64,000 nucleotides of DNA from Tagaea sp. (lineage in GTDB: Bacteria; Pseudomonadota; Alphaproteobacteria; CACIAM-22H2). Made by a program: the position numbers and the translations under genes. Below, piece after piece: positions 8,559-42,342 of the stretch. The notes under the pieces are model-generated. The model searched no databases, was not told the DNA's origin, and worked only from the letters and a program-made list of their open reading frames with translations. Within the stretch, counting starts at the first letter, position 1. Each line of letters opens with the position of its first letter. The DNA is taken from positions 3,931,346-3,995,345 of the forward strand of contig OZ245864.1 in assembly GCA_965229215.1 (NCBI GenBank), given 5' to 3'.

Positions 8559-8612
8559 GGGACATCTGCTAGACTCGAAGTCGCTGCATCTGGGTCACGA
8601 CAGGAGGCTTGT

Positions 8613-25692: not shown

Positions 25693-26331
25693 TTACTGGC
25701 TGACCCAAAGAATGCGGTGGCAGAACACGACGTCGGAGATGTCGAACGTGCGTTCGGCGTGCGCGGCGTTGAGGCTGGTCAGTTCCAGCTTGCGCTGGCC
25801 CTTGCGGATCAGCTGCTTGGCCATCACTTCGCCGGCCGTCGTCTTGACGACGACGCGGTCGCCGCGGCGCAAGCTGGCCTGCGGCGAGACGACGATCGTG
25901 TCGCCGTCGCGATAGACCGGCTCCATGCTGTCGCCCGCCACCATCAGCGCGTAGGCGTGCGTGTCGGCAAGCTCGGGGAACAGCAGTTCGTCCCAGCCCG
26001 TACCGGTGGGATAGCCGGCGTCGTCGAAGAAGCCCTTCTCGCCCGCCTGCGCATAGCCGATGACGGGGACACGGCGCATGGCGCCGGCCACGCTCGGCAC
26101 CGTGCCGATATAGCCGACGAACTCCGACATCGTGGCGCCGGTCGCCTCGAGGATCTTCGAGATGCTCTCGGTCGACGGCCAGCGCGGCCGGCCGTCGCGC
26201 GACACGCGCTTCGACTTGTTGAAGGTGGTGGGATCGAGGCCGGCGCGGCGCGCGAGACCCGACGGGGAGAAGCCATGATCGCCTGCGAGCTGATCGATGG
26301 CCTGCCAAACATCTGCGTGACGGAGAATCAT
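25693..26331 (-). CDS. S24-peptidase / phage-repressor-like (COG2932, LexA-like) transcriptional regulator
   Basis: N-terminal HTH (GFSPSGLARRAGLDPTTFNKSKR) plus a C-terminal S24 autopeptidase with Ser (GDSMEP) and Lys (IRKGQRK). 212 aa. Divergent from the phage-like cluster. No GTTC-N7-GTTC SOS box upstream. Confidence 0.8.
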   Translation of the reverse strand: MILRHADVWQAIDQLAGDHGFSPSGLARRAGLDPTTFNKSKRVSRDGRPRWPSTESISKILEATGATMSEFVGYIGTVPSVAGAMRRVPVIGYAQAGEKGFFDDAGYPTGTGWDELLFPELADTHAYALMVAGDSMEPVYRDGDTIVVSPQASLRRGDRVVVKTTAGEVMAKQLIRKGQRKLELTSLNAAHAERTFDISDVVFCHRILWVSQ

Positions 26332-26476
26332 GTGTGAATTTTTACTCAGGTTGTTGCGGATTGCATTAGGTATGTATGCCAATTTGAATTTCAAAAAGAA
26401 ATATTCCTTATATCCAAACGGACTGCTTCCCTTTATCAAGTTGTTTCCAATTTGTTCTGTAAACCGGAGATGGCGG

Positions 26477-26944
26477 ATGATGGCGGGCGCGAAGGCGGCG
26501 GGAAGGGGCGGGCGGACGATGGAAGGGGCCGTCGCGTCGGACGATGCGGCCGCCCTCGTCGTGTTCCGCGACCAGACCGAAATCGCCTGGCTGCGGGGCC
26601 TGCGCCGCGGCTTCCGGCACTGCGCGGTCTGGGTGCGCGCCGGCGACCTGTGGGTCGTGCAGGAAAGCCTGTCGAACCGGACAATTCTGGGGGTCTGGCA
26701 GGCCGACCGGGAGGCCGATCTGGTGGCCGCCCTGCGCCGCGCCGGGCACCGGGTCGTGCGCGCCCGGATCCGGCCGGCGCCGCGGCGCCTCGCCCCGCCG
26801 CTGCCCTTCAGCTGCGTGGAGGCGGTCAAGCGCGTGCTCGGCATCCATGCCTGGCATGTGCTGACGCCCTGGCAGCTCTACCGGCATTTGATCCGGGGCT
26901 CTCGAAAATCACATTTGACAATTACCCTAAATAGGAATATTTAA
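26477..26944 (+). CDS. Hypothetical protein, first gene of the phage-like cluster (start 26477 or 26519)
   Basis: Very high GC3 in this frame, versus low GC3 in the overlapping alternative frame. Flanked by AT-rich islands. No recognised family. Confidence 0.5.
   Translation: MMAGAKAAGRGGRTMEGAVASDDAAALVVFRDQTEIAWLRGLRRGFRHCAVWVRAGDLWVVQESLSNRTILGVWQADREADLVAALRRAGHRVVRARIRPAPRRLAPPLPFSCVEAVKRVLGIHAWHVLTPWQLYRHLIRGSRKSHLTITLNRNI
26915..26943 (+). promoter_or_regulatory. Candidate σ70-type promoter ahead of the portal operon
   Basis: TTGACA (26915-26920) followed by a 17-nt spacer and TATTTA, within an AT-rich island. Confidence 0.35.
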
Positions 26945-27053
26945 AGTTTCAGGCTCATAAATCGAGCTCTTTCCGGCTCCTTCCAGTCCTTGAATGGCTC
27001 TGGAGGGGCCGGAAATAGGTACGGATACCGTCCCCTCGAACCGGAGATGTCCC

Positions 27054-27275
27054 ATGGGTGGTTTTTTCTCGCCGTCGATTCCCGAACCCCCGCCGCCCCC
27101 GCCGATGCCGGCGTTGCCCGAGCCGGTCGATCCGGACAAGGAAGCGCGCGAGGCGCGCATCAAGGCGATGATCCGCCGCCGTCGCGGCCGGGCCGGCCTC
27201 GTGGCGACGGGCGAGCGCGGCGTGCTGCTCGCACCCGCTGCCGCGCAGGGCCTCGCCTCGAAGCTCGGGGAATGA
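27054..27275 (+). CDS. Small Pro-rich hypothetical protein (73 aa), translationally coupled to the portal gene
   Basis: GGAGA RBS and near-perfect GC3. Stop overlaps the portal start (ATGA). Sequence MGGFFSPSIPEPPPPPPMPALPEP. Confidence 0.5.
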   Translation: MGGFFSPSIPEPPPPPPMPALPEPVDPDKEAREARIKAMIRRRRGRAGLVATGERGVLLAPAAAQGLASKLGE

Positions 27276-28795
27276 CGATGGCCGAGATCCGATCCGAAAC
27301 GGCCCCGCGCGACACGCTCGCCCGCTTCCGCCGCGCCCGCCAGGCGCGTGGCGCCTGGGAGCCCGCGTGGCAGGATTGCTACGAGTTCGCGATGCCGCAG
27401 CGCGTGGCGTCGGGCGGCGGCGAGCGGCGCGGCGAACGCCTGTTCGACGCGACCGCCGGCGATGCGGCCGAGCAGTTGGCCGCATCGCTGATGTCGCAGC
27501 TTGTACCCCCGTGGTCGCGCTGGTTCGGCCTGCAGCCGGGCGGCGACGTGCCCGAGGAACACCGCGCGGCGCTCGGCGAGGTGCTGGAGAAGGCGGCCGC
27601 ATCGTTGCAGGCGCATTTCGACCGCTCGAACTTCGCCATGGAGATCCACCAGTGCTTCCTCGACCTCGTCGTCGCGGGCACGGCGATGCTGCAGTTCGAG
27701 GAGGCGCCGGCGGGCGCGGACTCCGCGTTCCGCTTCGCGGCCGTTCCGCTGGCGAGGCTGGCACTCGACGAGACCTCGGAGGGCGCGTTCGACATCGTCT
27801 TCCGCACGAGCGAGCTTTCGACCGAGCGGCTGGTCGAGCGTTTCCCGGACGCGGCGCTGCCCGACGCGCTGCGCAAGCCCGATCCGCGCGGCGGGGCCGA
27901 GCGCAGGCACACGATCGTCGAGGCGATGTTCGCCGAACGGCCCGGCTACCGCTACATGGCGCTGCTGGAAGACGGCGGCGACGCGTCGCAGCCCGTCGTG
28001 CTCGCCGAAGGGAATTTCGCGCAGCCGCCCTTCCTCGCCTTCCGCTGGCTCAAGGCGCCGGGCGAGGTCTATGGCCGCTCGCCCGTGATGAAGGCGCTGC
28101 CCGACATCAAGACCGCGAACAAGGTCGTCGAGCTCGTGCTGAAGAACGCCTCGATCGCCGTCACCGGCATCTGGCAGGCCGACGACGACGGCGTGCTCAA
28201 TCCCGCCAACATCCGCCTGCAGCCGGGCACGATCATCCCCAAGGCGGTCGGCTCGGCGGGCCTCACGCCGCTGGAGGCGCCCGGCCGTTTCGACGTGTCG
28301 AACCTCGTGCTCGACGATCTGCGCGGCCGCATCCGGCATGCGCTGCTCGCCGATCGCCTCGGCCAGGTCGACAGCCCGACGATGACGGCGACCGAAGTGC
28401 TCGAGCGCTCGGCCGAGATGTCGCGCATCCTCGGCGCCACCTACGGCCGCCTGCAGGCCGAGCTGCTTACGCCGCTGATCGCGCGCGCCATCGCCATCCT
28501 GCACCGGCGCGGCGAGATCCCGCCCGTGCTGGTCGACGGCCGCGTGGTCGAGCTCCAGTACAAGTCGCCGCTGGCGCTGGTGCAGGCGCAGGCCGACGTG
28601 CGCAACGCGATGCTGTGGATCACGCAGGCGGCCAGCCTCGGGCCCGAGGCGATGGCCGTCGTCGACGCGGGCGCGGCCGCGCGCTGGATGGCGCGCGCGC
28701 TCAGCGTGCCGCCCGATCTCGTGCGCCCGCCGGCCCCGGCCGCGGCGCCGTTGCAGATGCTCGCGCAGGCTCTCTCCGCCCAACCCCGGCAATGA
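27272..28795 (+). CDS. Podovirus (T7 gp8-like) head-to-tail connector / portal protein
   Basis: 507 aa. Collinear similarity to T7 gp8, including W.P.WQDC..F..P, the YGRS motif and TATEVLERSAEMSRILGATYGRLQAELLTPLI (compare T7 TAEEIRYVASELEDTLGGVYSILSQELQLPLV). Confidence 0.85.
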   Translation: MTMAEIRSETAPRDTLARFRRARQARGAWEPAWQDCYEFAMPQRVASGGGERRGERLFDATAGDAAEQLAASLMSQLVPPWSRWFGLQPGGDVPEEHRAALGEVLEKAAASLQAHFDRSNFAMEIHQCFLDLVVAGTAMLQFEEAPAGADSAFRFAAVPLARLALDETSEGAFDIVFRTSELSTERLVERFPDAALPDALRKPDPRGGAERRHTIVEAMFAERPGYRYMALLEDGGDASQPVVLAEGNFAQPPFLAFRWLKAPGEVYGRSPVMKALPDIKTANKVVELVLKNASIAVTGIWQADDDGVLNPANIRLQPGTIIPKAVGSAGLTPLEAPGRFDVSNLVLDDLRGRIRHALLADRLGQVDSPTMTATEVLERSAEMSRILGATYGRLQAELLTPLIARAIAILHRRGEIPPVLVDGRVVELQYKSPLALVQAQADVRNAMLWITQAASLGPEAMAVVDAGAAARWMARALSVPPDLVRPPAPAAAPLQMLAQALSAQPRQ

Positions 28796-28809
28796 AGGAA
28801 GGAACGACC

Positions 28810-29526
28810 ATGACCGATCCGATCGCAGCTCCCCCCGCACCGCCCGCACGTCCCGACCATGTGCCCGAGAAATTCTGGGATGCGGGAAGCGGGCAGGTCC
28901 GCGTCGACGCGCTCTCGAAATCCTATGCGGAACTCGAGCGCAAGCTCTCCGGCATGATCCCGGGGCCGAAATCGCCCGAATGGGAGCAGAGCTGGCGCAG
29001 GGCCGCCGGCGTGCCCGATGCGCCCGACGGCTATCGCATCGCGCCCAAGGACGATCTCGTCGCCGTCGATGCCGACGTGAACCGCCGCCTGCATGCGGCC
29101 GGCTTCACGCCGCAGCAGGCCCAGCTCGTCTACGACCTGGCGGTCGAGCGGCTGGTGCCGATGGTGCAGGACTATGCGGGTTCCTACCGTGCCGAACTCG
29201 CGCACGAGAAGCTCGTGGCGGAATTCGGCGGGGCGGAGAAGTGGGCCGCCCTCGCCCCGCAGATCGCGCGCTGGGGGCAGAAGAACCTGCCGGCACCCGT
29301 CTACGACGCGCTCGCCTCGACGCCCGAGGGAATCCGCGCGCTGCACCGGATGATGAATTCGGGCGAGCCCAGCCTGCGCGGCTTCGGCGCGCCCGCGGCC
29401 CCGGCCAGCGAGGACGACCTGCGCAGGCTGATGGCCGACAAGCGCTACTGGCGCGACCACGATCCGGCGATCGTGCGCACCGTCACCGAAGGCTTCAGGC
29501 GCCTCTATCCCGAACGCGAAAAGTGA
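28810..29526 (+). CDS. Putative scaffolding protein (position-equivalent to T7 gp9)
   Basis: 238-aa acidic helical protein lying between the portal and capsid genes. AAGGAAGG RBS. Assignment is by synteny only. Confidence 0.45.
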   Translation: MTDPIAAPPAPPARPDHVPEKFWDAGSGQVRVDALSKSYAELERKLSGMIPGPKSPEWEQSWRRAAGVPDAPDGYRIAPKDDLVAVDADVNRRLHAAGFTPQQAQLVYDLAVERLVPMVQDYAGSYRAELAHEKLVAEFGGAEKWAALAPQIARWGQKNLPAPVYDALASTPEGIRALHRMMNSGEPSLRGFGAPAAPASEDDLRRLMADKRYWRDHDPAIVRTVTEGFRRLYPEREK

Positions 29527-29536
29527 GAAAGACGGC

Positions 29537-29609
29537 TTGACAGGATGACAACTTAAGATTATATTCAAGACAACGTGCCGCCCGTGCTTGCCGCGGAGAA
29601 CGGCACGTT
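29537..29609 (+). promoter_or_regulatory. Near-consensus σ70 promoter (TTGACA-N17-TATATT) plus 5'-UTR hairpin upstream of the capsid gene
   Basis: TTGACA at 29537-29542 and TATATT at 29560-29565. Inverted repeat AACGTGCCG (29572-29580) / CGGCACGTT (29601-29609). Confidence 0.5.
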
Positions 29610-29707
29610 CCCTTCACATCTCCCGCGAAACGGGGTCGGCGCATCCATTTGCGATGCACCGGCAACCCTCGCTTGCGGGTCCCCCAACCGGTCACACAGA
29701 GGGACCC

Positions 29708-30520
29708 ATGCCCGACATCGACAAGGCTTTCGTCAAGCAATACGAGAACGACGTCCATCTCGCCTTCCAGCGGATGGGCTCGAAGCTGCGCACGAGCGTG
29801 CGCACGAAGAAGAACGTCCAGGGCGCTTCGACCGTCTTCCAGAAGATGGGTCGCGGTGCCGCGACGACCAAGGCGCGGCACGCGGCCGTGCCCGTCATGA
29901 ACGTGGACCACGCGACCGTCGAGGTTTTCCTGAAGGACTACTATGCGGGCGAATGGCTCGACGCGCTCGACGAGATCAAGGGGCCGAGCGACGAGCGTTC
30001 GGCGGTCGTGAATTCCGGCGCCTACGCGCTGGGGCGCAAGACCGACGAGCTCATCATCGACGCGCTGCAGACCTCGACGAACTTCGCAGGCACGGCGGCC
30101 GACGGCCTCACCAAGGCCAAGATCCTCGAGGCCTTCGAGAAGCTGGGCGCGTCCGACGTGCCCGACGACGGCGACCGCTGCGCGGTCATCGGCTGGAAGC
30201 AGTGGAGCGAGCTGCTCCAGATCGAGGAGTTCGCCAACGCCGACTATGTCGGCGAGGACGAGCTGCCCTGGCAGGGCACGCAGGCCAAGAAGTGGCTCGG
30301 CACGCTGTGGATGCCGCATTCGGGCCTGATCGCGGCCGGCGGCGTGCGCTCGTGCCACTGGTACCACAAGGCGGCCGTCGGCCACGCGTCGGGCTGCGAG
30401 GTCAAGTCGGACGTCACCTGGCACGGCGACCGCGCGTCGTTCTTCATCAGCAACATGATGAGCCAGGGTGCCGGCATCGTCGATGCGGCGGGCGTCGTCA
30501 CGCTGCGCTGCAAGGAGTAG
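29708..30520 (+). CDS. Major capsid protein (T7 gp10-like, HK97 fold)
   Basis: 270 aa. N-terminal region resembles T7 gp10 (TSVRTKKNVQGASTVFQKMGRGAA vs SISSGKSAQFPVLGRTQAA). Sits between the scaffold-like and tubular genes. AGAGGGA RBS. Confidence 0.65.
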   Translation: MPDIDKAFVKQYENDVHLAFQRMGSKLRTSVRTKKNVQGASTVFQKMGRGAATTKARHAAVPVMNVDHATVEVFLKDYYAGEWLDALDEIKGPSDERSAVVNSGAYALGRKTDELIIDALQTSTNFAGTAADGLTKAKILEAFEKLGASDVPDDGDRCAVIGWKQWSELLQIEEFANADYVGEDELPWQGTQAKKWLGTLWMPHSGLIAAGGVRSCHWYHKAAVGHASGCEVKSDVTWHGDRASFFISNMMSQGAGIVDAAGVVTLRCKE

Positions 30521-30531
30521 GGAGAAAACAG

Positions 30532-30801
30532 ATGGCCTTCGAACTCAAGAACCTGTCCGTGCTCGCCTACGCCAACGGCTTCACGCTCTGGCACTACACC
30601 ACGCCGGATGCGGCGGCCGCCGTCGACGACGCGGGCTATTTCGACGCCGCCGCCGACATGCTGCGCGCGGGCGACATGATCCTCGCCAACACCGCCACCG
30701 GCGGCGGCGCCCAGAGCGGCGTCTTCGCGGTGGCGGGCGTGGCGGCCGGATCGGTCGATGCCGCGAGCCTCACGCCGTTCGGCGCGTCCAACCCCGACTG
30801 A
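30532..30801 (+). CDS. Small hypothetical virion-associated protein (89 aa)
   Basis: GGGAGAAAAC RBS. High GC3. Lies between the capsid and tail tubular A genes. Confidence 0.45.
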   Translation: MAFELKNLSVLAYANGFTLWHYTTPDAAAAVDDAGYFDAAADMLRAGDMILANTATGGGAQSGVFAVAGVAAGSVDAASLTPFGASNPD

Positions 30802-30868
30802 GACCCGGAAACCGGCGGGCGGGTTCTTCCGCCCGCCGGATCTTCCCCAGGAATTCCAGGAGAACCCG

Positions 30869-31438
30869 ATGGCCCTCACGTCCATCGCGCTGTGCGCGCG
30901 CGCCCTCGTCAAGCTCGGTGCCCGGTCGATCGCCTCGTTTGACGAGGGTACGGCCGAAGCCGAGATCGCGGCCGTGCTCTATCCCTCGATCCGCGACGGG
31001 CTGCTGTCCGCGCACCCGTGGAGCTTCGCGACCGCGCAGGCGTCGCTCGCGCGCCTCGCGCGCACGCCGGTCGCCGACCATGCCCACGCCTACCAGCTTC
31101 CCGCCGATTTCCTGCGCGCCCTTTCGCTCGGTTCCGGCACGCGCGGGCGGGGCACGGAGTACCGGATCGTCGAATCGGCGCTGCACTGCGACGCCGACGC
31201 GGTCGTGCTTTCCTACGTGTTCCGGCCCGACGAGACCGGCTTCCCGCCTTTCTTCGACACGCTGCTGATCGCGACGCTCGCGGCCGAATTCTGCCTGCCG
31301 GTGACCGAGAGCACGACGCGCGCCGAACTGCTGCGCCGCACGGCCGAATCCGAGTTCCGCCGCGCGCGCCTGATCGACGCCCAGCAGGACACGCCCCAGC
31401 GCATCGAGGACTTCACGCTGGTGGAGGCGCGCCGATGA
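30869..31438 (+). CDS. Tail tubular protein A (T7 gp11-like)
   Basis: 189 aa, close in size to T7 gp11 (196 aa), with a similar N-terminal pattern (ARALVKLGARSIASFDEG vs NDILASIGEPPVSTLEG; HPWSF vs RGWTF). Confidence 0.7.
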   Translation: MALTSIALCARALVKLGARSIASFDEGTAEAEIAAVLYPSIRDGLLSAHPWSFATAQASLARLARTPVADHAHAYQLPADFLRALSLGSGTRGRGTEYRIVESALHCDADAVVLSYVFRPDETGFPPFFDTLLIATLAAEFCLPVTESTTRAELLRRTAESEFRRARLIDAQQDTPQRIEDFTLVEARR

Positions 31439-33342
31439 GCGTCGTGCGCCTTGCCAAGACGAGCTTCGCCTCGGGCGAGATCGGCCCCGCGATGTACGGC
31501 CGCAGCGACCTGCGCGCGTTCGAGAACGGCGCGCGCACGCTGCGCAACGTTTTCGTGCAGCCCTCGGGTGGCGTGCGCCGCCGGCCGGGCCTCGTGCATA
31601 TCGACCTGCTGCCCGGCCCTGCGCGCCTGATCGGGTTCGAGTTCAACACCGAGCAGGCGTATCTGCTCGCGGTGCTGGGCGGCGAGACGCGCGTGTGGCG
31701 CGAGGACGAGCGCGTCGCGACCTTCGCCACGCCCTGGTCGGCCGCGCAGATCGGCCAGCTCGCCTGGACGCAGAGCGCCGACACGCTGCTCGTCGTGCAT
31801 CCCGACGTGCCGCCGCGGCGCATCACGCGCACGTCGGACACCGCGTGGAAGGTGGAGCCGTGGGCCTTCTTCGAGGAGAAGGGCATCTGCCGGCAGCCCT
31901 ATCACAAGTTCGCGGCCGACGAGGTGACGCTGACGCCGAACGGCACGGCCGGCACGGTGACGCTGAGCGCCTCGGCCGACGTGTTCGTCGCCGGGCATGT
32001 CGGGCTGCGCTTCCGCGTGCAGACGAAGGAGATGAAGATCGATGCCGTGGCGGGCCCGCGCACGGCCACGGCCACGCTTTGCACCGAGCAGACGCTGCCC
32101 GACACGAGCGCGACGCGCGACTGGGAGGAGCAGGCCTTCTCCGACGTGCGCGGCTGGCCGGTCAGCGTCACGTTCCATCAGGACCGGCTGGTGATCGGCG
32201 GCTCGCGCGACCTGCCCAACCGGCTGTGGCTGTCGAAATCCGGCGACCTGTTCAATTTCGACCTGGGTACCGGCCTCGACGACGAGGCGATCGAGTTCGC
32301 GCTGCTGTCCGACCAGGTCAACGCGATCCGGCACGTCTTCTCGGGCCGCCACCTGCAGGTCTTCACGTCGGGGGCCGAGTGGATGGTGTCGGGCGAACCG
32401 CTGACGCCCGAGAACGTCCAGCTCGACCGCCAGACCCGCATCGGCAGCCCGATCGACCGGTCGGTGCGCCCGCGCGACGTCGACGGCGCCACGCTGTTCG
32501 CCGGGCGCGGCGGGCGCGACCTGCGCGAGTTCCTGTTCGCCGACGGCGAGCAGGCCTATCAGGCGACGGATCTGGCGCTGCTCGCACCCCATCTGGTGCG
32601 CGATCCCGTCGCCATCGACTACGACCCCGACGACCGGCTGCTGCATGTCGTCAACGCCGACGGCACGCTCGCGACGCTGACGGTCTATCGCGCCGAACAG
32701 GTGACGGCGTGGACGCTGCAGACCACGCAGGGCGCGTTCCGCGCGGTCGCGGTGGCGGCGAACGAGACGTATCTCGCCGTCGAGCGCGACGGCGCATGGT
32801 CGATCGAGAGCTTCGATGCGGACTACGCGACCGATGCGGCCGTCTGGATCGAGCCGCCGGCCGGTGCGGCGCACTGGTCGGGGCTTTCGCATCTCGACGG
32901 CAAGGCGGTCGAACTCGTCGGCGACGGCGTGCCGCTGGGCACGACCGTCCCTGCGGGCGGCAAGGTGCCGGTGCTTGCACCCGTCGCGGAACTCGAAGCC
33001 GGCCTCGGCTTCGTTTCCGTCATCGAGCCGCTGCCGCCGTCGCTTGCGGCAGCGGGCGGTGCCAGTCCGCGCAGCGTGCGCCTGATCGAGGCGACGTTCC
33101 GCCTGCTGGAGGCGCGCCAGATGCGCCTCGACACCGGCAGCGGCCCCGTCGACGTGCCGTTCCGCGCCTTTGCGGCGGGCGGAATGCTCGACCGGCCGGT
33201 CGCCGGCTTCACCGGCGAGAAGCGCGTGCGTGCACTCGGCTGGAAACGCGCGGGCGTCGACGCGCTGTGGCGCATCGAACTGCCGGCACCGCTGCCTTTC
33301 ACGCTGCTCTCCGTAACCCAGGAAATGAAGGTGAACGACTGA
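31435..33342 (+). CDS. Tail tubular protein B (T7 gp12-like)
   Basis: 635 aa. N-terminal similarity to T7 gp12 (SFASGEIGP...R.D.....NG......GGVRRRPGL vs NLKGGISQQP..LRYPDQGSRQVNG.....GLQKRPPL). ATGA overlap with the tubular A gene. Confidence 0.8.
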   Translation: MSVVRLAKTSFASGEIGPAMYGRSDLRAFENGARTLRNVFVQPSGGVRRRPGLVHIDLLPGPARLIGFEFNTEQAYLLAVLGGETRVWREDERVATFATPWSAAQIGQLAWTQSADTLLVVHPDVPPRRITRTSDTAWKVEPWAFFEEKGICRQPYHKFAADEVTLTPNGTAGTVTLSASADVFVAGHVGLRFRVQTKEMKIDAVAGPRTATATLCTEQTLPDTSATRDWEEQAFSDVRGWPVSVTFHQDRLVIGGSRDLPNRLWLSKSGDLFNFDLGTGLDDEAIEFALLSDQVNAIRHVFSGRHLQVFTSGAEWMVSGEPLTPENVQLDRQTRIGSPIDRSVRPRDVDGATLFAGRGGRDLREFLFADGEQAYQATDLALLAPHLVRDPVAIDYDPDDRLLHVVNADGTLATLTVYRAEQVTAWTLQTTQGAFRAVAVAANETYLAVERDGAWSIESFDADYATDAAVWIEPPAGAAHWSGLSHLDGKAVELVGDGVPLGTTVPAGGKVPVLAPVAELEAGLGFVSVIEPLPPSLAAAGGASPRSVRLIEATFRLLEARQMRLDTGSGPVDVPFRAFAAGGMLDRPVAGFTGEKRVRALGWKRAGVDALWRIELPAPLPFTLLSVTQEMKVND

Positions 33343-33914
33343 TGGGCGCTCTCACGATTCCACAGATGATGATGGCGCAGACCGCCATGGCGGGCGCGGG
33401 CCTCGTCCAGGGCCTCGCCAATTCGCATGCCGCCGCTTCGCAGGCACAGGCGCAGGCCCGCGCGCAGGCGCAGATGGCGCAGGCACAAGCCGAACGCCAG
33501 CGCGAGCTGCTCGACCGGCAATACGCATCCGAGACGCGCCGGCGCACCAACCTGCTCGAACGCGCGACCGCCAAGGCGCGCGTCTCGTTCGGCGCGCGCG
33601 GCCTGTCGCCGACCGACGGTTCGGCGGGCGCATTGCTCGACGGCATCGAGACCGATTTCGGCCTCGACGAGGCCGAGCGCACGCAGGATTACGGCATGCG
33701 CCGCTCGGCCCTCGACGCCGGGCTCGCGGACTCGCTGCAGCGCATCGATTTCGCGACAGGCCGAAACCTTCTCGACCGCGAGTCCGACATCCAGCGCCGC
33801 GTCCTCGGCCTGCTGAACTGGGGCACGCGCAGTTTCGGACGCGGCGGCGGATTGCCGCGCGGCCCGGTCGGCGACTTCCCCGTCAATTCCGGCCTCTACG
33901 ACAACCTTGCCTGA
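33342..33914 (+). CDS. Small internal virion protein candidate (190 aa, Gln/Ala-rich; gp13/gp14 position)
   Basis: AQ-rich low-complexity N-terminus (AASQAQAQARAQAQMAQAQAERQ). Lies between the tubular B and tail fibre genes. Confidence 0.4.
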   Translation: MGALTIPQMMMAQTAMAGAGLVQGLANSHAAASQAQAQARAQAQMAQAQAERQRELLDRQYASETRRRTNLLERATAKARVSFGARGLSPTDGSAGALLDGIETDFGLDEAERTQDYGMRRSALDAGLADSLQRIDFATGRNLLDRESDIQRRVLGLLNWGTRSFGRGGGLPRGPVGDFPVNSGLYDNLA

Positions 33915-33925
33915 GGAGCACTGAC

Positions 33926-36574
33926 ATGAGCGACCACATCAAGATCGCCGCCAAGCTGCCGCGCTGCCGCTATCGCGCGAACGGCATGCAGCGCGTCTTC
34001 ACGTTCGATTTCGCCGTCTTCCGGCCCGAGGATGTCGAGATCCGCATCGACGGCACGCCGGTCGCGGGCGGCTATGCCGTCGCGGTCGGCGCACTCGGCA
34101 CGGGTGCCGCCACGCTCGACGCGGCACCCGCCGACGGCGCCATCGTCACGCTGAGCCGCCGCCTCGTCGTGCGGCGCGAGACGGATTTCCAGGAAGGCGG
34201 CGAGCTGCGCGCCAAGACGCTCAACGACGAGCTCGATTTCCAGACGGCCGCTCTCCAGCAGGTCGAGACGGCCGCCGCGCGCGCCCTGCATCTGCCGGTC
34301 GACGATCCGGACGATGCCACGACGCAGCTTCCGCGCGCGACGGCGCGCGCGAACCGCGCGCTGGTGTTCGATGCGGCCGGAAATCCGGCCGTGTCGGCCG
34401 ACCTCTATGCCGACCAGGCGGCGGCATCCGCCGCCAGCGCCGCTTCCGCCGCCGCTTCGGCCGGTTCGGCCGCTTCGGCTTCCGCCAACGCTTCCGATTC
34501 CGCCGTCGCCGCCGCGACGGGCTCGGCATCGGCCGCGAGCTCCGCCGCTTCGGCCGCCGCGCAGGCGACGTCGGCGAGCGCATCGGCGGCAGGTGCGGCT
34601 TCTTCGGCGCTCGCCGCATCCGGTTCGGCCGCATCGGCCGCTTCGGCGGCCGCCGGGCTCTCGGCGCTCGCGATCGCGTGGAATTTCGAATCCGCGGACG
34701 CGATGGCCGAACCCGCGGCCGGGGCCCTGCGCTTCAACGCCGCCACGCCTGCCGGCGCGAGCGCGCTGGCGCTCTCGGCGAACGCGGCCGATCCCGGCAA
34801 TCCCGACATCTCCGGCATCGTCGCCGCGTGGAACGCCAGCACCAGCACGTCGGCGCGCGGCCAGCTCGTGCTGCGCAAGCGCGGTACGCCCGCGACGTTC
34901 GCCGCCTTCAAGGTCTCGGGCGTGACGGACAACGGCGCCTGGCTGCTGGCCGACGTGGTGCCCGTCGCATCGGCCGGAACGTGGAGCGCCGGCGATACCG
35001 CCTATGCCGTCTTCACGGCCGCGGGCGACAAGGGCGACACCGGCAGCCTCGCCGGCGGCGGCTCGCTGACCGCGTCGATTGAGGAAGCCAAGCGGGTCGC
35101 GATTGCCTCCGCCGCGACGACGAACGTGTGGGGCGGGGACGGGAACTTCGTCCACGTCACGGGGAACGCGACGATCGCGAGCTTCGGCATCGCGCCGCAG
35201 GCGGGTTCGCAGCGCACGATCGTGTTCGACGGCGCGCTGACGCTGGTGCATGCGGCACCCGCACTCCAGCTGCCGGGCGGGGCCAGCATCGTCACGGCGC
35301 CGGGCGACCGCGCCATCGTGCGCGCGGACACGCCGGCCAATCACATCGTCGTCGCCTATACGCGCGCCGACGGCACGCCGCTGGCGCTGGGCAATGCCGG
35401 ACCCGTGCAGGCGATCCTTGCGGGCGAAACACTCGCCGACCGCGATCTCGTCTACCAGGACATCTTCAACCAGCGCGGCGGCGGGTCGACGCGCTGGTAC
35501 AGGGTCGATGCCGACGCGACCGGGCCGGTGCGCATCTCGCCGACGATCGGCATCGCGCTGGGCGCGATCGCGGGGGGAAGCACGGGCGCAGCGCAGATCC
35601 GCGCGGGGCGCGTGGCGGGGTTCGCGGGCCTGGTCGCGGGCGGCCCGGTCTGGGCGTCGGCGACGCCCGGCGGCGTGACCCAGTCCCCGCCGCCGCTTCC
35701 GGCGGGCGGCACGCAGCATGCGCTGCGCCTGGTCGGGATCGCGGCGTCGGCGGCCGAGATCGATTTCGCGCCCGACGACGACACGCTGTTCGTGAAGACC
35801 GGCGACGCGCTCGCGCACGGCGGCGTCCTGACGGTCGAGCACTGGAGCGATGTCGGCGCGCCCGACCGCGTGCCCTATGCCTCGACGATCGCGCAGGTCT
35901 TCGCGACGACCGTTTCGCGCGGCGCCGGCTCCAACGGCACCACCTACAACGGCTACACCGTGCGTCTCAGGTTCGCCGCGAGCGTGCTGTCGACGTCCGG
36001 AAGCCGGGTGCGCGTCACGTTCAAGGCGGGCGGCACGCAGCCGCTTGCGGTGAACAACGCCTATATCGGCGAGGCGGCGGCCGGCGGCAACGCCTGGGAT
36101 TTCGCAGCATCCCCCGCGCGCCTCACCTTCGGCGGCGGCGCCAACGGGTTTTCCATTCCCGTCGGCGCGAGCATCGTCTCCGACAGCGTCGTGTTCGCGC
36201 TCGACGAGGCGAAGAGCCACATCGTCTCGCTCGAAGTGCCGAGTGCGGGCGGACCATACGGCACGGACTACACCTCCGTGCCGGCCGGCTGGTCGACCTA
36301 CTACAAGTTGGGCGGCGTGGCGGATGCCGGCGCGGTGGCGCCCGGCGGATACAGCCAGGATTCCGCGAACACATATCTCGTCACGGCGGTCGAGGTTCTC
36401 GTCGTCACCCGCCGCGAGCCCGAGCCGGTCTTTCCCGAGGCGCGCTTCGCGGGCGCCGCCGACAGGGTCACCTGCCGCTACGACGACGGGGCGGGCGGCA
36501 ACGCCGACACGCGCACGAGCTTCGTGAACCGGACCGGCGCGCTGCAGGCGCTCGCCGTCGAGGTGCAGCTGTGA
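33926..36574 (+). CDS. Tail fibre protein (T7 gp17-like N-terminal adaptor domain, Ala/Ser-rich shaft, C-terminal beta-rich domain)
   Basis: 882 aa. N-terminus (IKIAAKLPRCRYRANGMQRVFTFDFAVFRPEDVEIRIDGTPV) parallels T7 gp17 (IKTVLTYQLDGSNRDFNIPFEYLARKFVVVTLIGVDRKVL). Contains a long A/S repeat region. Confidence 0.7.
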   Translation: MSDHIKIAAKLPRCRYRANGMQRVFTFDFAVFRPEDVEIRIDGTPVAGGYAVAVGALGTGAATLDAAPADGAIVTLSRRLVVRRETDFQEGGELRAKTLNDELDFQTAALQQVETAAARALHLPVDDPDDATTQLPRATARANRALVFDAAGNPAVSADLYADQAAASAASAASAAASAGSAASASANASDSAVAAATGSASAASSAASAAAQATSASASAAGAASSALAASGSAASAASAAAGLSALAIAWNFESADAMAEPAAGALRFNAATPAGASALALSANAADPGNPDISGIVAAWNASTSTSARGQLVLRKRGTPATFAAFKVSGVTDNGAWLLADVVPVASAGTWSAGDTAYAVFTAAGDKGDTGSLAGGGSLTASIEEAKRVAIASAATTNVWGGDGNFVHVTGNATIASFGIAPQAGSQRTIVFDGALTLVHAAPALQLPGGASIVTAPGDRAIVRADTPANHIVVAYTRADGTPLALGNAGPVQAILAGETLADRDLVYQDIFNQRGGGSTRWYRVDADATGPVRISPTIGIALGAIAGGSTGAAQIRAGRVAGFAGLVAGGPVWASATPGGVTQSPPPLPAGGTQHALRLVGIAASAAEIDFAPDDDTLFVKTGDALAHGGVLTVEHWSDVGAPDRVPYASTIAQVFATTVSRGAGSNGTTYNGYTVRLRFAASVLSTSGSRVRVTFKAGGTQPLAVNNAYIGEAAAGGNAWDFAASPARLTFGGGANGFSIPVGASIVSDSVVFALDEAKSHIVSLEVPSAGGPYGTDYTSVPAGWSTYYKLGGVADAGAVAPGGYSQDSANTYLVTAVEVLVVTRREPEPVFPEARFAGAADRVTCRYDDGAGGNADTRTSFVNRTGALQALAVEVQL

Positions 36575-38058
36575 GCGAGCCCGCACCGCCGAGTTTCCCC
36601 GACTTCGTCGAGCAGTGGAACGCGCTGCAGGGGCTCGCGACGCCCGCCGTGCACCGGCGCATGGCCGACTGGCTTGCCGACGCGCGCGCGGACCGGGCGA
36701 CGGGCCTGGTGCTGCTCGCGTTCCGCTCCAGCGGCAAGTCGACGCTGGTCGGCCTCTTCTGCGCCTGGCTGCTCGCCTGCGATCCCGACCTGCGGGTGAT
36801 GGTGCTGGCGGCGGAAGAGGCGCTGGCGCGCAAGATGGTGCGCAACGTCAAGCGCATCGTCGAGCGCCATCCGGCGACCGCGGGCCTCAAGCCCGCGCGC
36901 AAGGAGCTGTGGTCGGCCGACCAGTTCGTCGTCGAGCGGCGCGCGGAGCTGCGCGACCCCTCGATGCTGGCGCGCGGGCTTGCGGGCAACATCACCGGCA
37001 GCCGGGCCGACATCGTCATCTGCGACGACGTCGAGGTGCCAAACACCTGCGACACGCACGCCAAGCGCGCCGACCTGCGTGCGCGCCTGCTCGAGATCGA
37101 CTACGTGCTCGTGCCCGGCGGGCTGCAGCTCTATATCGGCACGCCGCACAACTACTATTCGATCTATGCCGACGCGGCGCGCGAGGAGGCGGGGGAGACG
37201 GCGCCGTTCCTCGACGGCTTCCGCCGCCTGTCGGTCCCGGTCCGCGACGCGGCGGGCGACAGCGCGTGGCCCGAACGCTTCGACGACGCGCGGATCGGGG
37301 CGGTGCTGACGCGGACCGGTCCGCTCAAGTTCCGCGCGCAGATGATGCTGGAGCCGGTCGCCGACGGCGCCTGCCGTCTCGATCCGGACCGCCTCGTTCC
37401 CTACGACCTGCCGCTCGACTATTCGGAAGGCAACGGCCAGCCGGTGCTGTCGATCGGCGGGAAACGCATGATGTCGGCAAGCTGCTGGTGGGACCCGTCC
37501 TACGGCTCGCCCGACGGCGACCGGTCGGTCGTCGCCATCGTCTTCACCGACGAGGACGGGCATGCCTGGCTGCACGACATCGCGTACCTGTCGGTGCCGC
37601 AAGGCGACGCGCGCGGCGACGAGGCAAGCGCCTTCTGCCGGCAGGTCGCCGAATTCGCGCGGCGCAACCACGCGCCGGGCGTGCGCATCGAGACCAACGG
37701 CCTCGGCGGCTTCCTGCCCGGCATCCTGCGCAAGGAGATGTCGGCCGCCGGCATCGGCGCCGCCGTGACCGGCGCGCACAGCCGCGTCGCGAAGGCCAAG
37801 CGCATCCTCGACGCGTTCGACGCACGGCTCGCCGCCGGCATGCTGCATGCGCACGCGCGCATCCGCGAAACGCCGTTCCTCGCCGAGATGCGCGAATGGC
37901 GGGCCGACATCCCCGGCATCCGCGACGACGGGCTCGACGCCGTCGCCGGCTGCCTTGCGAGCGAACCGTTGCGTCTCGCGCCCGCCCCGCGACCCGAGCG
38001 CGCGGACTGGCGGCCGGGGGCGCCCGCGCGCCTCGTGCCGAGCGATTTCGAGATCTGA
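36571..38058 (+). CDS. Terminase large subunit (T7 gp19-like)
   Basis: GTG start overlapping the fibre stop (GTGA). Walker A (AFRSSGKSTLVGL). Acidic nuclease-domain residues. 495 aa. Confidence 0.8.
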   Translation: MSEPAPPSFPDFVEQWNALQGLATPAVHRRMADWLADARADRATGLVLLAFRSSGKSTLVGLFCAWLLACDPDLRVMVLAAEEALARKMVRNVKRIVERHPATAGLKPARKELWSADQFVVERRAELRDPSMLARGLAGNITGSRADIVICDDVEVPNTCDTHAKRADLRARLLEIDYVLVPGGLQLYIGTPHNYYSIYADAAREEAGETAPFLDGFRRLSVPVRDAAGDSAWPERFDDARIGAVLTRTGPLKFRAQMMLEPVADGACRLDPDRLVPYDLPLDYSEGNGQPVLSIGGKRMMSASCWWDPSYGSPDGDRSVVAIVFTDEDGHAWLHDIAYLSVPQGDARGDEASAFCRQVAEFARRNHAPGVRIETNGLGGFLPGILRKEMSAAGIGAAVTGAHSRVAKAKRILDAFDARLAAGMLHAHARIRETPFLAEMREWRADIPGIRDDGLDAVAGCLASEPLRLAPAPRPERADWRPGAPARLVPSDFEI

Positions 38059-38076
38059 GAAGGAAAGGGAAGCATC

Positions 38077-38373
38077 ATGGACATGTTCGAACTCTCGCCC
38101 GGCCTGGCGCTCGTCGCGGCGTCGGACGCCTCGAGCTTCGGCGCGATCGCCTGGCTCCTCTGGAAGCGCCACCAGGATCACGACCGCGTGCTCGACCGGC
38201 TGCGCCAGGCCTGCCTCGACGAGACGCGCGAGCTGCGACAGGCGCTGGCCGAGTTCAAGCTGGAGGTCGCGCGCGGCTACGCTTCGATCGGCTACATCAA
38301 GGACGTGGAGAACCGCCTGACGGCGCATCTGCTGCGCATCGAGGCGAAACTCGACGGCGCGTCGGGGGGCTGA
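38077..38373 (+). CDS. Small single-TM protein (holin- or spanin-like candidate)
   Basis: 98 aa with one TM helix (ALVAASDASSFGAIAWLLW) then a coiled coil. Follows the terminase gene. Confidence 0.4.
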   Translation: MDMFELSPGLALVAASDASSFGAIAWLLWKRHQDHDRVLDRLRQACLDETRELRQALAEFKLEVARGYASIGYIKDVENRLTAHLLRIEAKLDGASGG

Positions 38374-38374
38374 G

Positions 38375-38920
38375 ATGATTCCGGCATTGATCGCCCAGAT
38401 CGGCCTGCCGCTGCTGGCGAAGCTCGTCGGTGGTGCCTTGTCGCGCGTCGACCATCCGGCCGCGCGCGAAGCCGCGCGCACGCTCGCGGCGGCCGGCGAC
38501 GACCTCACGCCCGAGCAGATCGCCGAAGCCAACCGCCATCTCGAAGCGCTGGCGAAGAGCGAAAGCGAGGAAGACCGCGAGACGCTGCGCGAGGTCAACG
38601 CGTCGCTGCGCGCCGAGGCCGCCAGCGAGGACGCCTATGTAAGGCGCATGCGGCCGACCTTCGGCTACGTGATGGCGGCGACGTGGGCGGCGCAGATGGG
38701 CGCGGTCGCGTGGGTCGTGGTGCGCGCACCCGCCGAAGCGGCCGCGGTGATCGAGGCGCTGGGCGCGCTGTCGGTCGTCTGGTCGGTCGGGCTGTCGGTG
38801 CTGGGCGTCTATGTCTACAAGCGCTCGGCCGACAAGGCCTTGTCTGCGGGGGCCCTGTCGGCGGGCGTGCCGGTGACGGGGCTCGTCGAGCGGCTGCTGC
38901 GGGCAGGAGAACGGCGCTAG
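38375..38920 (+). CDS. Membrane protein resembling 3-TM GTA-type holins
   Basis: 181 aa. Helical N-terminal region then hydrophobic segments near the C-terminus ([41 protein letters not shown]). Last gene of the cluster. Confidence 0.4.
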
Positions 38921-40590
38921 GTCGCGGCCGCCTGTTCCTGCTGCGCGCCGCCGGTCGCGTTCGTCAGCAGCCGCTCGGAGATGCGGCGCAGGCCGACGAT
39001 GTTCTCGCTCACCGTCGCGAGGGAGACGCGCACGTCGGCCGAACTCGTGCTGACCGCGTTGATCTCGCGGCTGACGTTCTTGATCTTCGCGGAGACCTCG
39101 CGCGAGGCCTCGGCCGTCTGCGCCACGTTGCGCGCGATCTCCTGCGTGGCGGAACCCTGCTGCTTCATCGCGGCGGCGATGGCGCCGGCCACGCCGTCGA
39201 CTTCGCGGATGCGCTCGCCGATCTCGGCGACGGCCGCGACGGCGGCCTGCGTGGCGTTCAGGATCTCGGCCACGAGGCGGTCGATGTCCTCGGTCGAGCG
39301 GCCGGTCTGGTTGGCGAGGTTCTTCACTTCGGATGCCACGACCGCGAAACCCTTGCCGGCCTCGCCCGCGCGCGCGGATTCGATCGTGGCGTTGAGCGCG
39401 AGCAGGTTCGTGCGCCCGGCGATCTGGCCGATGAGCTTGCTCACATCCGAGATCTTCGCGACCGCGTCCGACAGCGAACGGATCGTCGACTGCGCCTTCT
39501 CGCCGCTGGAGACGGCAAGGCGCGTGACGCCCGAGGCGCGCGCGACCTGCGCGGAAATCTCGCGGATCGAGGCCGAAAGCTGCTCGGCCGCCGAAGAGAC
39601 GGTCTGCACGTTGACGAGGGCGAGTTCGGAGGCGGTGGCCACGGCCTCGCTCTCGGCCAGCACCTCGTCGGCGAGCTTGGTCATGCCCAGCGCCGCGTCG
39701 TCGACCGTGCCGGTGGCGGCGGCGATCGAATCCACGGCGACGGCGGTCTCGCGCACCGTCCGGGCCATCTCGACGGCGCGCAGCTTGCGGCGTTCCTCGG
39801 ATTCGGCCGCCATCTTCGCCGTCTCGGCCCGCAGCCTTTCGTTTTCGACCGCGTTGTCCTTGAAGAAGGAGACGGCGCCGGCCATGTCGCCGACCTCGTC
39901 GGTGCGCCCGCTGCCGGGGATCTCGACGGCGAGGTTGCCCGAGGCGAGCCCGCTCATCGCCGTGGCCATCGCGCGGATCGGCCAGCCGATGTTGCGCGCG
40001 AGCAGGAGCCCGACGACCGCCGCCGCGACGACGGTGAAAAGGGCGACGGCGGAAAGCGCCAGGACGACGTTGTCGGCGATCTTCCCGGCATCCTGCCGGA
40101 AATAGTAGCCCTGTTCCTTCGCCGCCTCGTTGACGATCGTCAGTTTCGTCTCGAGCGACTTCAGCAGCGATTCGCGTTCCTTGAGGAGTTCCGCGGTTTC
40201 GGGATTCGCGAGGATCCGTTCGCGCAGGGCGCTCCACTTCGCCAGCGTCTGCTTGACGTCTTCGATGCGGGCGATGCTTTCGGGATCGTGGGCGCGTTCC
40301 TCGACGATCGCGATATCCTCGAGGATCGCTTCTTCGCGCTTCTTCAGTGTCGCCGGATCGACCTTGCCGCCGTCCCTGCGCTGCTGCAGGGCACGCGTGA
40401 CGGCAAGGTCGAGCCTGGCGAAGTTGGTCATCGCCGAAGCCGCGAAGTCGCTCGCCATCAGCGGGCCGTCATAGAGGCCCTCGGTCAGCGAGGCGATCTG
40501 CCGCAGCCCGAAGACGGCATACGCACCCATCGCCGTCGTCAGCAGCGCGACGACGGTGAGGCAGACGAGGATCTTTCCGCGAATGCGCAT
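38917..40590 (-). CDS. Methyl-accepting chemotaxis protein (557 aa)
   Basis: TM1, periplasmic helical domain, TM2, HAMP and conserved MCP signalling domain ([31 protein letters not shown]). Convergent 4-bp overlap with the last cluster gene. Confidence 0.85.
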
Positions 40591-40623
40591 GGTCGCCGCT
40601 CCGCCCGGTCGGGTCCGGCAGGA

Positions 40624-40944
40624 TTACTTGACGGTAAGCTTCATCTTCATCTGCGGATGGATCGCGCAGCGGACCTCGCCGCTGCCTTCCTTGGCGAAGG
40701 TGATGTCGCTCGACTCGCCCGGCTTCTGCACCTTCAGCTCGAAGGCGATGCCCGGCGACTGGGAATAGACGTTGTGCGTGAACGGGTCCTCGTTCTTGAA
40801 GACGACGACGTCGCCCTTGCTGATCGTCATTTCCTCGACCGCGAACTTCTTGTCGAGCTGGACGACCGTGTTGCTGGCGGCGAACGCGTAGCTGCTGGCG
40901 GCGCCGACGGCGAGCGCGATCGCGGGCAATAGATGGGAACGCAT
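40624..40944 (-). CDS. Type-1 copper cupredoxin (pseudoazurin/amicyanin-like)
   Basis: Signal peptide. Cu ligands His (FTHNV) and C-x2-H-x4-M (CAIHPQMKM). 106 aa. Confidence 0.7.
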   Translation of the reverse strand: MRSHLLPAIALAVGAASSYAFAASNTVVQLDKKFAVEEMTISKGDVVVFKNEDPFTHNVYSQSPGIAFELKVQKPGESSDITFAKEGSGEVRCAIHPQMKMKLTVK

Positions 40945-40989
40945 GTCTTCTGTCTCCTCGGTGTGGGGTTCGTGCGGGGTCCGCCTGCC

Positions 40990-42090: not shown

Positions 42091-42342
42091 ATGCAAATCC
42101 TCCGGTTCACTTTCGATCCGCACAAAATGAACCGACGCCCGTTAAAAATCCACTAGTAATGAGTGTAAACTACTAGTGTATGCGATCTAAAAACGTATGG
42201 CATTTTCGACGCCGCCGCGCATCGCGCACGCGCGGATTACGGGCGTAGCAAAAGGATGGCGGCACGCCGGTTCCGCCGCCGATCCGCGCGACCGTTCGAC
42301 ATGCTTCAACGCGCCGCCGAAGCACGCTAGTTTGGTGGCGGA

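Follow-up and report, generated by a model that had tools for sequence, protein, structure and literature searches.

In the 64-kb stretch of the Tagaea sp. genome analysed here (64,000 nt of contig OZ245864.1; hereafter the window), a 13.2-kb phage-like region is located at 25693–38920, between host genes. On balance, we read this cluster as a candidate gene transfer agent (GTA) or "viriform": what is left of a temperate T7-supergroup podovirus, now fixed in the chromosome and maintained as a working module for making particles. Its gene content points to a candidate, independently domesticated GTA lineage, distinct from the siphovirus-derived ones. The cluster consists of 14 undisrupted open reading frames (ORFs) that overlap or directly adjoin each other, and it is vertically inherited, chromosomally fixed and under purifying selection. 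It appears to keep a gp14-family ejection protein, and neither gp15 and gp16 nor a small terminase subunit (TerS) was recognised in it.

A scan based on tail tubular protein B (tubB), with one genome per species, found 425 relatives of the cluster, and a scan of IMG/VR found 575; the best 80 of each were inspected. By tblastn, nearly all of the best 80 of 425 showed the order repressor, 155-aa protein, (73-aa protein), portal, scaffold, capsid, 89-aa protein, tail tubular protein A (tubA), tubB, (gp14), fibre, large terminase (TerL), 98-aa protein and holin. The tubB identity in this set went down to 54%. These 80 were, with few exceptions, Alphaproteobacteria, most of which carried an assignment to Rhodospirillales or Acetobacteraceae, and their genera included Tagaea (closest, 83–90%), Telmatospirillum, Magnetospirillum, Terasakiella, Caenispirillum, Belnapia, Elioraea, Siccirubricoccus, Roseospirillum, Micavibrio and Defluviicoccus. 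The same gene order was present in three contigs found via the fibre (L001–L003). The best 80 of the 575 IMG/VR relatives carried the same mini-element, many on contigs of just 12–13 kb, and no complete phage with >50% tubB identity was found among them.

The gene for class-I lysyl-tRNA synthetase (LysRS), which forms the left border in the window (23960–25576), was also the left neighbour in 17 of the 52 loci with a full left flank. In these 17 genomes, LysRS identity to the window correlated with tubB identity (r = 0.98; an identity correlation, used as a proxy for tree congruence), which indicates that the element diverges in step with its host. The dN/dS of all 14 cluster genes was 0.03–0.53, compared with 0.08–0.35 for the flanking LysRS and DUF952 genes (Nei–Gojobori, four relatives), and these NG86 values are approximate in a genome saturated in third-codon-position GC (GC3). 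The order was rearranged in a few relatives. TerL was located upstream of the capsid gene, with portal and scaffold downstream of tubB/gp14, in L036, L072 and L091; TerL, the 98-aa gene and the holin lay between the 155-aa gene and the portal in L148. The module has thus been permuted in some lineages.

The features of the cluster, with strand and basis of assignment, are:
25693..26331 (−): CI/LexA-type repressor, 212 aa, divergent from the structural operon (PF00717, HTH_26, phrog_4)
26332..26476 (no strand): AT-rich divergent region, putatively regulatory (GC profile, alignment with 7 relatives)
26477..26944 (+): predicted cysteine hydrolase, probably 155 aa (predicted fold, invariant His/Cys)
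27054..27275 (+): 73-aa Pro-rich/basic protein (phrog_831)
27272..28795 (+): portal (head-tail connector), 507 aa (PF12236 1e-133, phrog_332)
28792..29526 (+): T7-type scaffolding protein, 244 aa (PF05396 4e-10)
29708..30520 (+): major capsid protein, 270 aa (PF19821 2e-77)
30532..30801 (+): 89-aa conserved protein (phrog_18004)
30869..31438 (+): tail tubular protein A (adaptor), 189 aa (phrog_394 2e-46)
31435..33342 (+): tail tubular protein B (nozzle), 635 aa (phrog_376 2e-136)
33342..33914 (+): gp14-family ejection protein, 190 aa (PF24072, phrog_418)
33926..36574 (+): tail fibre, 882 aa (phrog_1640, MEP301 fibre N-terminus)
36571..38058 (+): large terminase, 495 aa (phrog_38, T7 gp19)
38077..38373 (+): 98-aa membrane protein (phrog_29007)
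38375..38920 (+): three-transmembrane (3-TM) holin, 181 aa, last gene of the cluster (PF11351, phrog_3427)

The right border is a convergent chemoreceptor gene (38917–40590, −), the end of which overlaps the end of the holin gene (38917–38920). No integrase or replication genes were found in the cluster or in the scanned ORFs of the window, and no tRNAs, Rfam families or att-like direct repeats were found in the window. Judged by integrase or att sites, by replication genes and by a complete virion set, none of which it displays, the predicted gene content is not that of an intact temperate podophage (prophage). Chemoreceptor, cupredoxin and di-haem peroxidase genes (38917–42123, −) separate the holin from the DUF952 gene in the window and in L001. 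L002 lacks all three, with the holin directly next to DUF952, and in L003 they are replaced by a DUF4238 gene. The right junction is therefore variable; LysRS was the left neighbour wherever it was identified.

The locus 33342–38058 was the subject of an earlier note on this DNA. Gene calls were made from GC3 frame plots and translations, as the ~70% GC of the window fills ORF lists with spurious frames. The locus holds three plus-strand genes and almost no non-coding DNA, with a coding density of ~100%. The 190-aa ORF (33342–33914) is Gln/Ala-rich and its ATG overlaps the tubB stop as TGATG. The frame plots and translations confirmed the statement of the note that this protein alone lies between tubB and the fibre. 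The 882-aa ORF (33926–36574) begins after an 11-nt spacer, and the GTG start of the 495-aa TerL (36571–38058) overlaps the fibre stop as GTGA. Because the coding density is ~100%, there is no room for 3–6 kb of gp15/gp16-type genes or for a TerL-adjacent small terminase. From the nozzle gene to the TerL stop, no pseudogene remnant of gp15/gp16 or of a small terminase was found.

The fibre and the large terminase had been described as intact in the earlier note, and both identifications held in PHROG/Pfam scans and tblastn. TerL matched phrog_38 (1e-75) and T7 gp19 (1e-20), with a dN/dS of 0.13–0.45. Of the terminase holoenzyme, the large subunit (ATPase and nuclease) is thus present, and a small subunit near TerL was not recognised. 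The fibre has a conserved T7-type N-terminal tail-attachment domain, an Ala/Ser-rich shaft and a variable C-terminal part. Its first ~130–160 residues matched PHROGs annotated as "tail protein" (residues 10–132 to phrog_1640), and its N-terminus matched that of the MEP301 fibre (3e-16). The fibre homologues had the N-terminal part alone in common, and their distal domains differed: Collar, C1q, F5/8-C, Gly_rich_2 and, in distant members, Phage_T7_tail. This frequent swapping of the distal part suggests that the particles still need to recognise cell surfaces. An Ala/Ser-rich low-complexity tract in the shaft (34418–34680, fibre residues ~165–250) contains imperfect GCC/TCG-rich direct repeats (families D1, D16 and D19), and the GC3 frame signal is locally disturbed there.

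The 190-aa protein matched the Pfam family T7_gp14 (PF24072) with 27.0 bits, exactly the gathering cut-off, and also phrog_418, annotated as "internal virion protein". The match to PF24072 was found in 13 of the 35 orthologues (best E 6e-9), and PF24072 is also the precomputed database annotation of an identical protein (P0221). In most related loci, tubB is followed by a protein of 139–193 aa with the same N-terminal hydrophobic segment and the motif R-A-R-F-G-A-x-G...G-S-A-x-A-x-L-x-G-L. The nearest phages carry a phrog_418 protein as well, directly after tubB in MEP301 (gp27) and one gene further in YeP5 (160 aa, 7e-40). The AlphaFold (AF2) model of the 190-aa protein (pLDDT 73) showed a short N-terminal helix and two long antiparallel helices (28–85 and 93–164) joined at the conserved motif. 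Ejected T7 gp14 has been described with the same layout, an N-terminal helix and a long antiparallel helical hairpin (PMC11784390). The assignment as a gp14-family internal virion (ejection) protein, and with it the retention of the outer-membrane part of the ejectosome, is well supported by these matches but not airtight. The earlier note had held the whole gp14/15/16-like core to be absent; this stands for gp15 and gp16 at the locus and falls for gp14 (PF24072, phrog_418, 13/35 orthologues). The note had also named a bona fide gp13, gp14 or gp18 homologue in the 190-aa ORF as a finding that would speak against its view, and a gp14 homologue is what the profiles identify. The note had coupled this with large core proteins encoded just outside the window; none was found inside it.

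In the tubB–TerL interval of loci of the Magnetospirillum group (L023, L033, L082, L029, L063 and L097), a gp14 ORF was not seen. These intervals contain 2–4 tail-fibre paralogues with the same N-terminal adaptor, and the same loci also hold ConA-lectin/SPRY proteins of 460–1090 aa that start with MLSDxMMLGGGRKAA.

The missing proteins were searched for by tblastn in the 64-kb window and in 160 related loci with flanks of up to 10 kb per side. The queries were T7 gp13–gp18, TerS of MEP301 and the internal proteins of both MEP301 and YeP5; these internal proteins had no match in either set. For a gp15-like periplasmic tunnel protein (about 470–750 aa), the window and the 160 loci were empty by tblastn, Pfam and PHROG alike. 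A gp16-like inner-membrane/cytoplasmic protein with C-terminal TM helices (about 600–1300 aa) was likewise not found in either set, one domain match aside. This sole T7 gp16 match (L143:4346–4759; 33% identity, E 8e-8) covers the N-terminal lytic-transglycosylase domain only; on its 56.8-kb IMG/VR contig the capsid-gene match follows ~4 kb downstream, and the domain may belong to an adjacent prophage. T7 gp18, MEP301 gp49 and the 116-aa protein of YeP5, used as small-terminase queries in tblastn, matched nothing in the window or the 160 loci, and homologues of gp13 and gp7.3 were not detected there. The gene after TerL encodes the 98-aa membrane protein and not TerS, and the overlap of the fibre stop with the TerL start leaves no gene between them. 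The view of the earlier note that gp15/gp16-type genes and a TerL-adjacent small terminase are lacking was therefore borne out by the packing of the genes and by the empty tblastn searches.

Relocation of core proteins into the larger gaps of relatives was considered and rejected. In the 110 loci that have tubB and TerL in order, the two genes lie a median of 3.16 kb apart (range 0.74–9.8 kb), and 103 of the 132 ORFs of at least 250 aa in this interval carried the fibre N-terminal domain. The non-fibre ORFs sampled were ConA-like lectin/SPRY virion proteins, several others seem to be artefacts of a wrong frame, and a few families lay outside the scan. Where the distance from capsid to tubA was large, the interval contained PG_binding_3 proteins, a Sel1-repeat protein, a radical-SAM protein and fibre and holin genes that had been rearranged. 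The gap contents identified were fibre paralogues, lectin/SPRY, PG_binding_3, Sel1-repeat, radical-SAM or unrelated accessory genes. Proteins of ~475–506 aa with a C-terminal PG_binding_3 domain occur once or twice between the 89-aa gene and tubA (L024:5482–6918 and 7922–9349; L045:7867–9387). They may be peptidoglycan-binding or lytic accessory proteins, and the family is absent from the window.

The large ORFs scanned elsewhere in the window carried housekeeping Pfam domains (GroEL, helicase, SecA, ArgJ, CtaA, transporters, methylmalonyl-CoA mutase), apart from a 1971-aa protein without a match (48125–54040, +). This protein was rejected as a displaced gp15/16: it is a membrane-anchored coiled-coil repeat protein without phage matches that is kept beside methylmalonyl-CoA mutase. 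N-terminal TM segments are followed by ~1800 aa of Ala/Arg/Glu-rich repeated coiled coil, with no Pfam domain and a faint PHROG signal (E 0.017). Its counterparts of 1973–1977 aa lie directly downstream of the mutase gene in L002 and L003, and it does not look phage-related.

The earlier note had proposed that small ORFs might supply the missing functions. The ORF given there as 142 aa is probably 155 aa (26477..26944, +), and a permuted papain/NlpC-P60-like cysteine-hydrolase fold is predicted for it, which is neither a terminase nor a core protein. Its family comprises at least 1334 unannotated proteins without a Pfam family, with the invariant motif G-F-R-H-C ... C-V-E-x-x-K-R ... T-P-x-Q-L, and is always encoded by the first gene of the operon. 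On this model the protein is predicted to be a candidate cell-wall hydrolase; the fold and the invariant His/Cys residues led to its rejection as TerS. The 73-aa protein, encoded just upstream of the portal gene, is Pro-rich/basic and conserved in the relatives (MGGFFSxPS...RRRRGRAGxVATxxRGVL...LLGE). It belongs to phrog_831, a phage family without an assigned function that was matched by 17 of 23 members of the 73-aa family (best 4e-12). No similarity of the 73-aa family to T7 gp6.7 was detectable by hhalign. We do not claim it as a "gp6.7 analogue", as the only basis would be size, position and an N-terminal M-G/C-x-F-S-P resemblance. The 89-aa protein (phrog_18004, 4e-19) is the homologue of MEP301 gp30, which is also encoded next after the capsid gene, and MEP301 has its own TerS. 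The 98-aa protein (phrog_29007, 2.5e-23; dN/dS 0.05–0.14) has one N-terminal TM helix and a coiled coil, both kept in 86 orthologues. It is probably lysis-associated, and the conserved TM helix led to its rejection as a relocated gp18. By sequence, none of the 73-, 89- and 98-aa proteins looks like a small terminase. The 3-TM holin (181 aa) matched GTA_holin_3TM (PF11351, 2.6e-12) and phrog_3427.

The sole regulatory gene of the cluster encodes a CI/LexA-type repressor of 212 aa with a Cro/C1 HTH and a peptidase S24 domain (PF00717 3e-21, HTH_26, phrog_4 3e-29). It was found at the same position in 34 of the 52 genome loci with a full left flank, and its dN/dS (0.06–0.13) is among the lowest of the cluster. 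The 145-bp AT-rich region between the S24 repressor and the operon (26332–26476) has a GC of about 0.3–0.5, compared with about 0.70 for the window. Alignment with 7 relatives (Tagaea and Telmatospirillum) showed conserved blocks in it, GATTGCATTAGGTA and GTTGTTT..TTTGTTCT, which we infer to be candidate operators or promoters. A near-consensus sigma-70-type promoter match (TTGACA-17-TATATT, 11/12; 29537–29565, +) is located in the 180-bp spacer between scaffold and capsid and is the only such match in the cluster. By analogy with the phi10 promoter of T7, it may boost capsid expression.

The closest phage relatives are Yersinia phage YeP4-6, Methylophilales phage MEP301 and the HTVC019P-type pelagiphages, which share the portal, capsid, tubular A/B, fibre N-terminus and 89-aa protein at about 23–45% identity. 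Tubular B is ~32% identical to those of Pelagibacter phages, MEP301 and Yersinia YeP4-6. These phages have the same module order and a phrog_418 protein after tubular B (one gene further in YeP5), and YeP5 also has a divergent repressor. Unlike the cluster, they are complete 34–40-kb phages with a primase or other DNA-metabolism genes. Their phrog_418 gene is followed by 5–6 kb of large internal proteins (YeP5 phrog_992, 1145 and 684; MEP301 gp23–26), and MEP301 has an annotated TerS. We take this set as the ancestral state.

In T7, gp14 extends the nozzle across the outer membrane with gp6.7, and gp15/gp16 bridge the periplasm and the inner membrane (PMC11784390, PMC8954989). Ejection proteins are common in Gram-negative podoviruses and needed for infectivity, and gp14 is the most conserved of them (PMC8954989). 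The cluster resembles the T7 ejectosome in the gp14-family gene directly after the nozzle gene and, in the predicted model, in the N-terminal hydrophobic helix and the long antiparallel hairpin. It differs in having no gp15 or gp16 (periplasmic tunnel, inner-membrane/cytoplasmic ring), no gp16 transglycosylase domain, and no detectable gp6.7, gp7.3 or gp13. The coding capacity for candidate core proteins is <300 aa, compared with about 2000 aa in T7.

RcGTA (Rhodogtaviriformidae) was an apt comparison in the earlier note for a fixed, vertically inherited cluster without gp15/gp16 or a recognised TerS. Both are phage-derived head-tail-packaging clusters of about 13–15 kb, chromosomally fixed and without integrase or replication genes. 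Both are vertically inherited over an order-level alphaproteobacterial clade under purifying selection and have a holin of the Pfam family PF11351; a reliance on DNA uptake by the recipient, proposed here by analogy, would be a further likeness. The ancestry of RcGTA is an HK97-type siphovirus, whereas the cluster described here derives from a T7-supergroup podovirus, as judged by PF12236, PF05396, tubular A/B, gp14 and the T7-type fibre N-terminus. RcGTA is under CtrA/GafA control; the present cluster is one compact operon with its own CI/LexA-like repressor. TerS is encoded by g1 in RcGTA and was not recognised here. For FpGTA of Faecalibacterium prausnitzii, a GTA-like element, podovirus-like particles have been suggested, and a paper from 2026 describes it as the first element of this kind (PMC12946183). 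It has a Gram-positive host, two loci and experimental packaging data (PMC12946183). In full-text searches of the literature, no T7-type element of this kind turned up for Alphaproteobacteria.

The formal definition of a GTA (viriform) lists caudoviricete-derived virion-like particles, full endogenisation, mostly vertical inheritance, mostly random host DNA as content, a head too small for the element's own genome, and delivery to other cells (PMC9662315). Sequence similarity of the portal, capsid, tail and terminase indicates caudoviricete-derived particle proteins. Full endogenisation is seen in the lack of integrase, replication genes and att repeats and in host genes that abut both ends. 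Vertical inheritance is seen in the LysRS flank in 17 genomes with the r = 0.98 proxy.

More tentatively, the cluster may be an ancient, order-wide GTA from a T7-type podovirus that lost both the ejectosome half for the periplasm and inner membrane and the terminase subunit for specificity, and kept the gp14 channel. Such "half-injection", with the DNA handed over to recipient uptake, would be an independent second alphaproteobacterial invention of the RcGTA solution, made from a different phage lineage. SOS-like autocleavage of the S24 repressor would turn on the operon, and TerL, with no subunit to confer specificity, would package any DNA ends at hand, that is, host DNA. Non-specific packaging fits the loss of the small terminase, since TerS confers packaging specificity, and the TerS of RcGTA has lost specific binding. 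The holin, cysteine hydrolase and TM/coiled-coil protein would then release the particles, and the fibre would bind a related cell. Like its T7 counterpart, the gp14 protein would lengthen the nozzle so that it passes the outer membrane; the crossing of the outer membrane only is plausible because gp14 is kept and gp15/gp16 are not. A particle built from this gene set would need another route for DNA delivery, as the earlier note had proposed, since gp15/gp16-type proteins are not encoded at the locus. The work of Brimacombe et al. in 2015 reportedly found that RcGTA DNA is left in the periplasm and imported through competence-type proteins of the recipient. In the same way, DNA left in the periplasm without gp15/gp16 would be taken over by the recipient's own DNA-import machinery.

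Several points weigh against the GTA reading and its half-injection form. The cluster is known from its genes, and particles, packaged DNA and transfer are unobserved; periplasmic delivery with competence-dependent uptake is something we infer purely by analogy. The gp14 assignment rests on threshold-level scores of hidden Markov models. Foldseek with the 190-aa model gave a T7 infection-state chain (8e4g_a) as its top hit, with a target-normalised TM-score of 0.60 and a non-significant E of 3.2. A profile of 35 gp14-like proteins retrieved only a poly-Q artefact from PDB sequences, and hhalign of this profile with T7 gp14 and MEP301 gp27, each as one sequence, gave no informative match. In the Magnetospirillum/Terasakiella group, the gp14 ORF was not found after tubB, so gp14 is not universal. 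The head may not be too small for the element: if the capsid is T=7 as in related phages (about 35–40 kb), the 13-kb cluster could fit into one head, unlike in classical GTAs. Ejection proteins and small terminases diverge fast, and one of the 73-, 89- and 98-aa proteins could formally still be a novel small TerS. The searched stretch is 64 kb of a 4.45-Mb contig, which leaves room for unlinked gp15/gp16-like or TerS genes, and RcGTA itself is multi-locus.

This last point leads to the rival that we consider unlikely yet take most seriously, a multi-locus element whose ejection proteins and TerS lie at unlinked chromosomal sites, as several RcGTA components do, and whose particles inject like those of a normal podovirus. 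GTA genomes are often spread "across multiple loci" (PMC9662315), the cluster has no dedicated endolysin of a known family, and the extra PG_binding_3 genes inside some relatives' clusters indicate that accessory functions move. Nothing of the kind was found in the window or in the flanks of the 160 loci, and all other structural genes stay together in one operon over deep divergence. In the nearest phages, tubB and the fibre gene enclose these genes, so that relocation would need precise excision and re-insertion. It is improbable that proteins of the cluster itself (nozzle, 73-aa protein and gp14) form a full trans-envelope channel of the phi29 type, with the cysteine hydrolase replacing the gp16 transglycosylase and with autonomous delivery to the cytoplasm. 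phi29-like podoviruses have no ejection proteins at all (PMC8954989), the small T7 protein gp6.7 co-assembles with gp14 (PMC11784390), and the cluster encodes a predicted hydrolase and two small conserved proteins without an assigned role. However, phi29-like phages infect Gram-positives, which have one membrane, and ejection proteins are common and required in Gram-negative podoviruses (PMC8954989). The <300 aa available and the lack of a TM-rich gp16-like C-terminus also argue against such a substitution.

We give slightly less weight still to a particle that transfers nothing, either a DNA-pressurised, tailocin-like killer that punches gp14 pores into competitors or a device for programmed lysis and DNA release. 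The repressor-plus-holin layout resembles that of SOS-induced bacteriocins, fibre C-termini are often swapped as in tailocins, and Magnetospirillum-group elements have several fibre paralogues. Portal, scaffold, capsid and TerL are all under purifying selection, which would be costly for a mere pore-former, and we know of no tailocin derived from a podovirus. Capsid-forming satellites have their own capsid and packaging genes and lack some virion functions. The cluster shares these traits with a helper-dependent, PICI-like satellite that would rely on a co-infecting T7-like phage for its ejection proteins and its TerS. It has its own tail and fibre, however, and lacks integrase, replication and excision genes and att repeats. 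The LysRS neighbour in 17/52 full-flank loci, the co-divergence with the host and the lack of a complete phage with >50% tubB identity among the best 80 of 575 IMG/VR relatives make this very improbable; the comparative and selection data argue strongly against a mobile satellite. Least probable of all is an ordinary decaying prophage remnant that lost genes by random deletion, even though the cluster is short, has no integrase or replication genes and is without several genes of the virion. None of the 14 ORFs is disrupted, and they overlap or lie next to each other. Their dN/dS (0.03–0.53) compares with 0.08–0.35 for neighbouring housekeeping genes. The same gene set occurs in nearly all of the 80 best-matching genomes (of 425 species), with tubB identities that go as low as 54%. 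Gene order conservation, dN/dS and co-divergence rule this explanation out.

Only a handful of GTA lineages are known, and the well-studied alphaproteobacterial ones are of siphovirus descent. If a T7-derived counterpart is conserved over hundreds of Rhodospirillales-type species, it would represent a new viriform family. If the reading as a domesticated GTA is true, it would mean convergent domestication to one minimal design, in which replication, integration, packaging specificity and inner-membrane delivery were lost and the outer-membrane step was kept. It would also provide a natural deletion experiment on which parts of the ejectosome cross which layer of the envelope. Cultured carriers exist in Magnetospirillum, Terasakiella, Belnapia, Caenispirillum and Roseospirillum, which makes direct testing possible.

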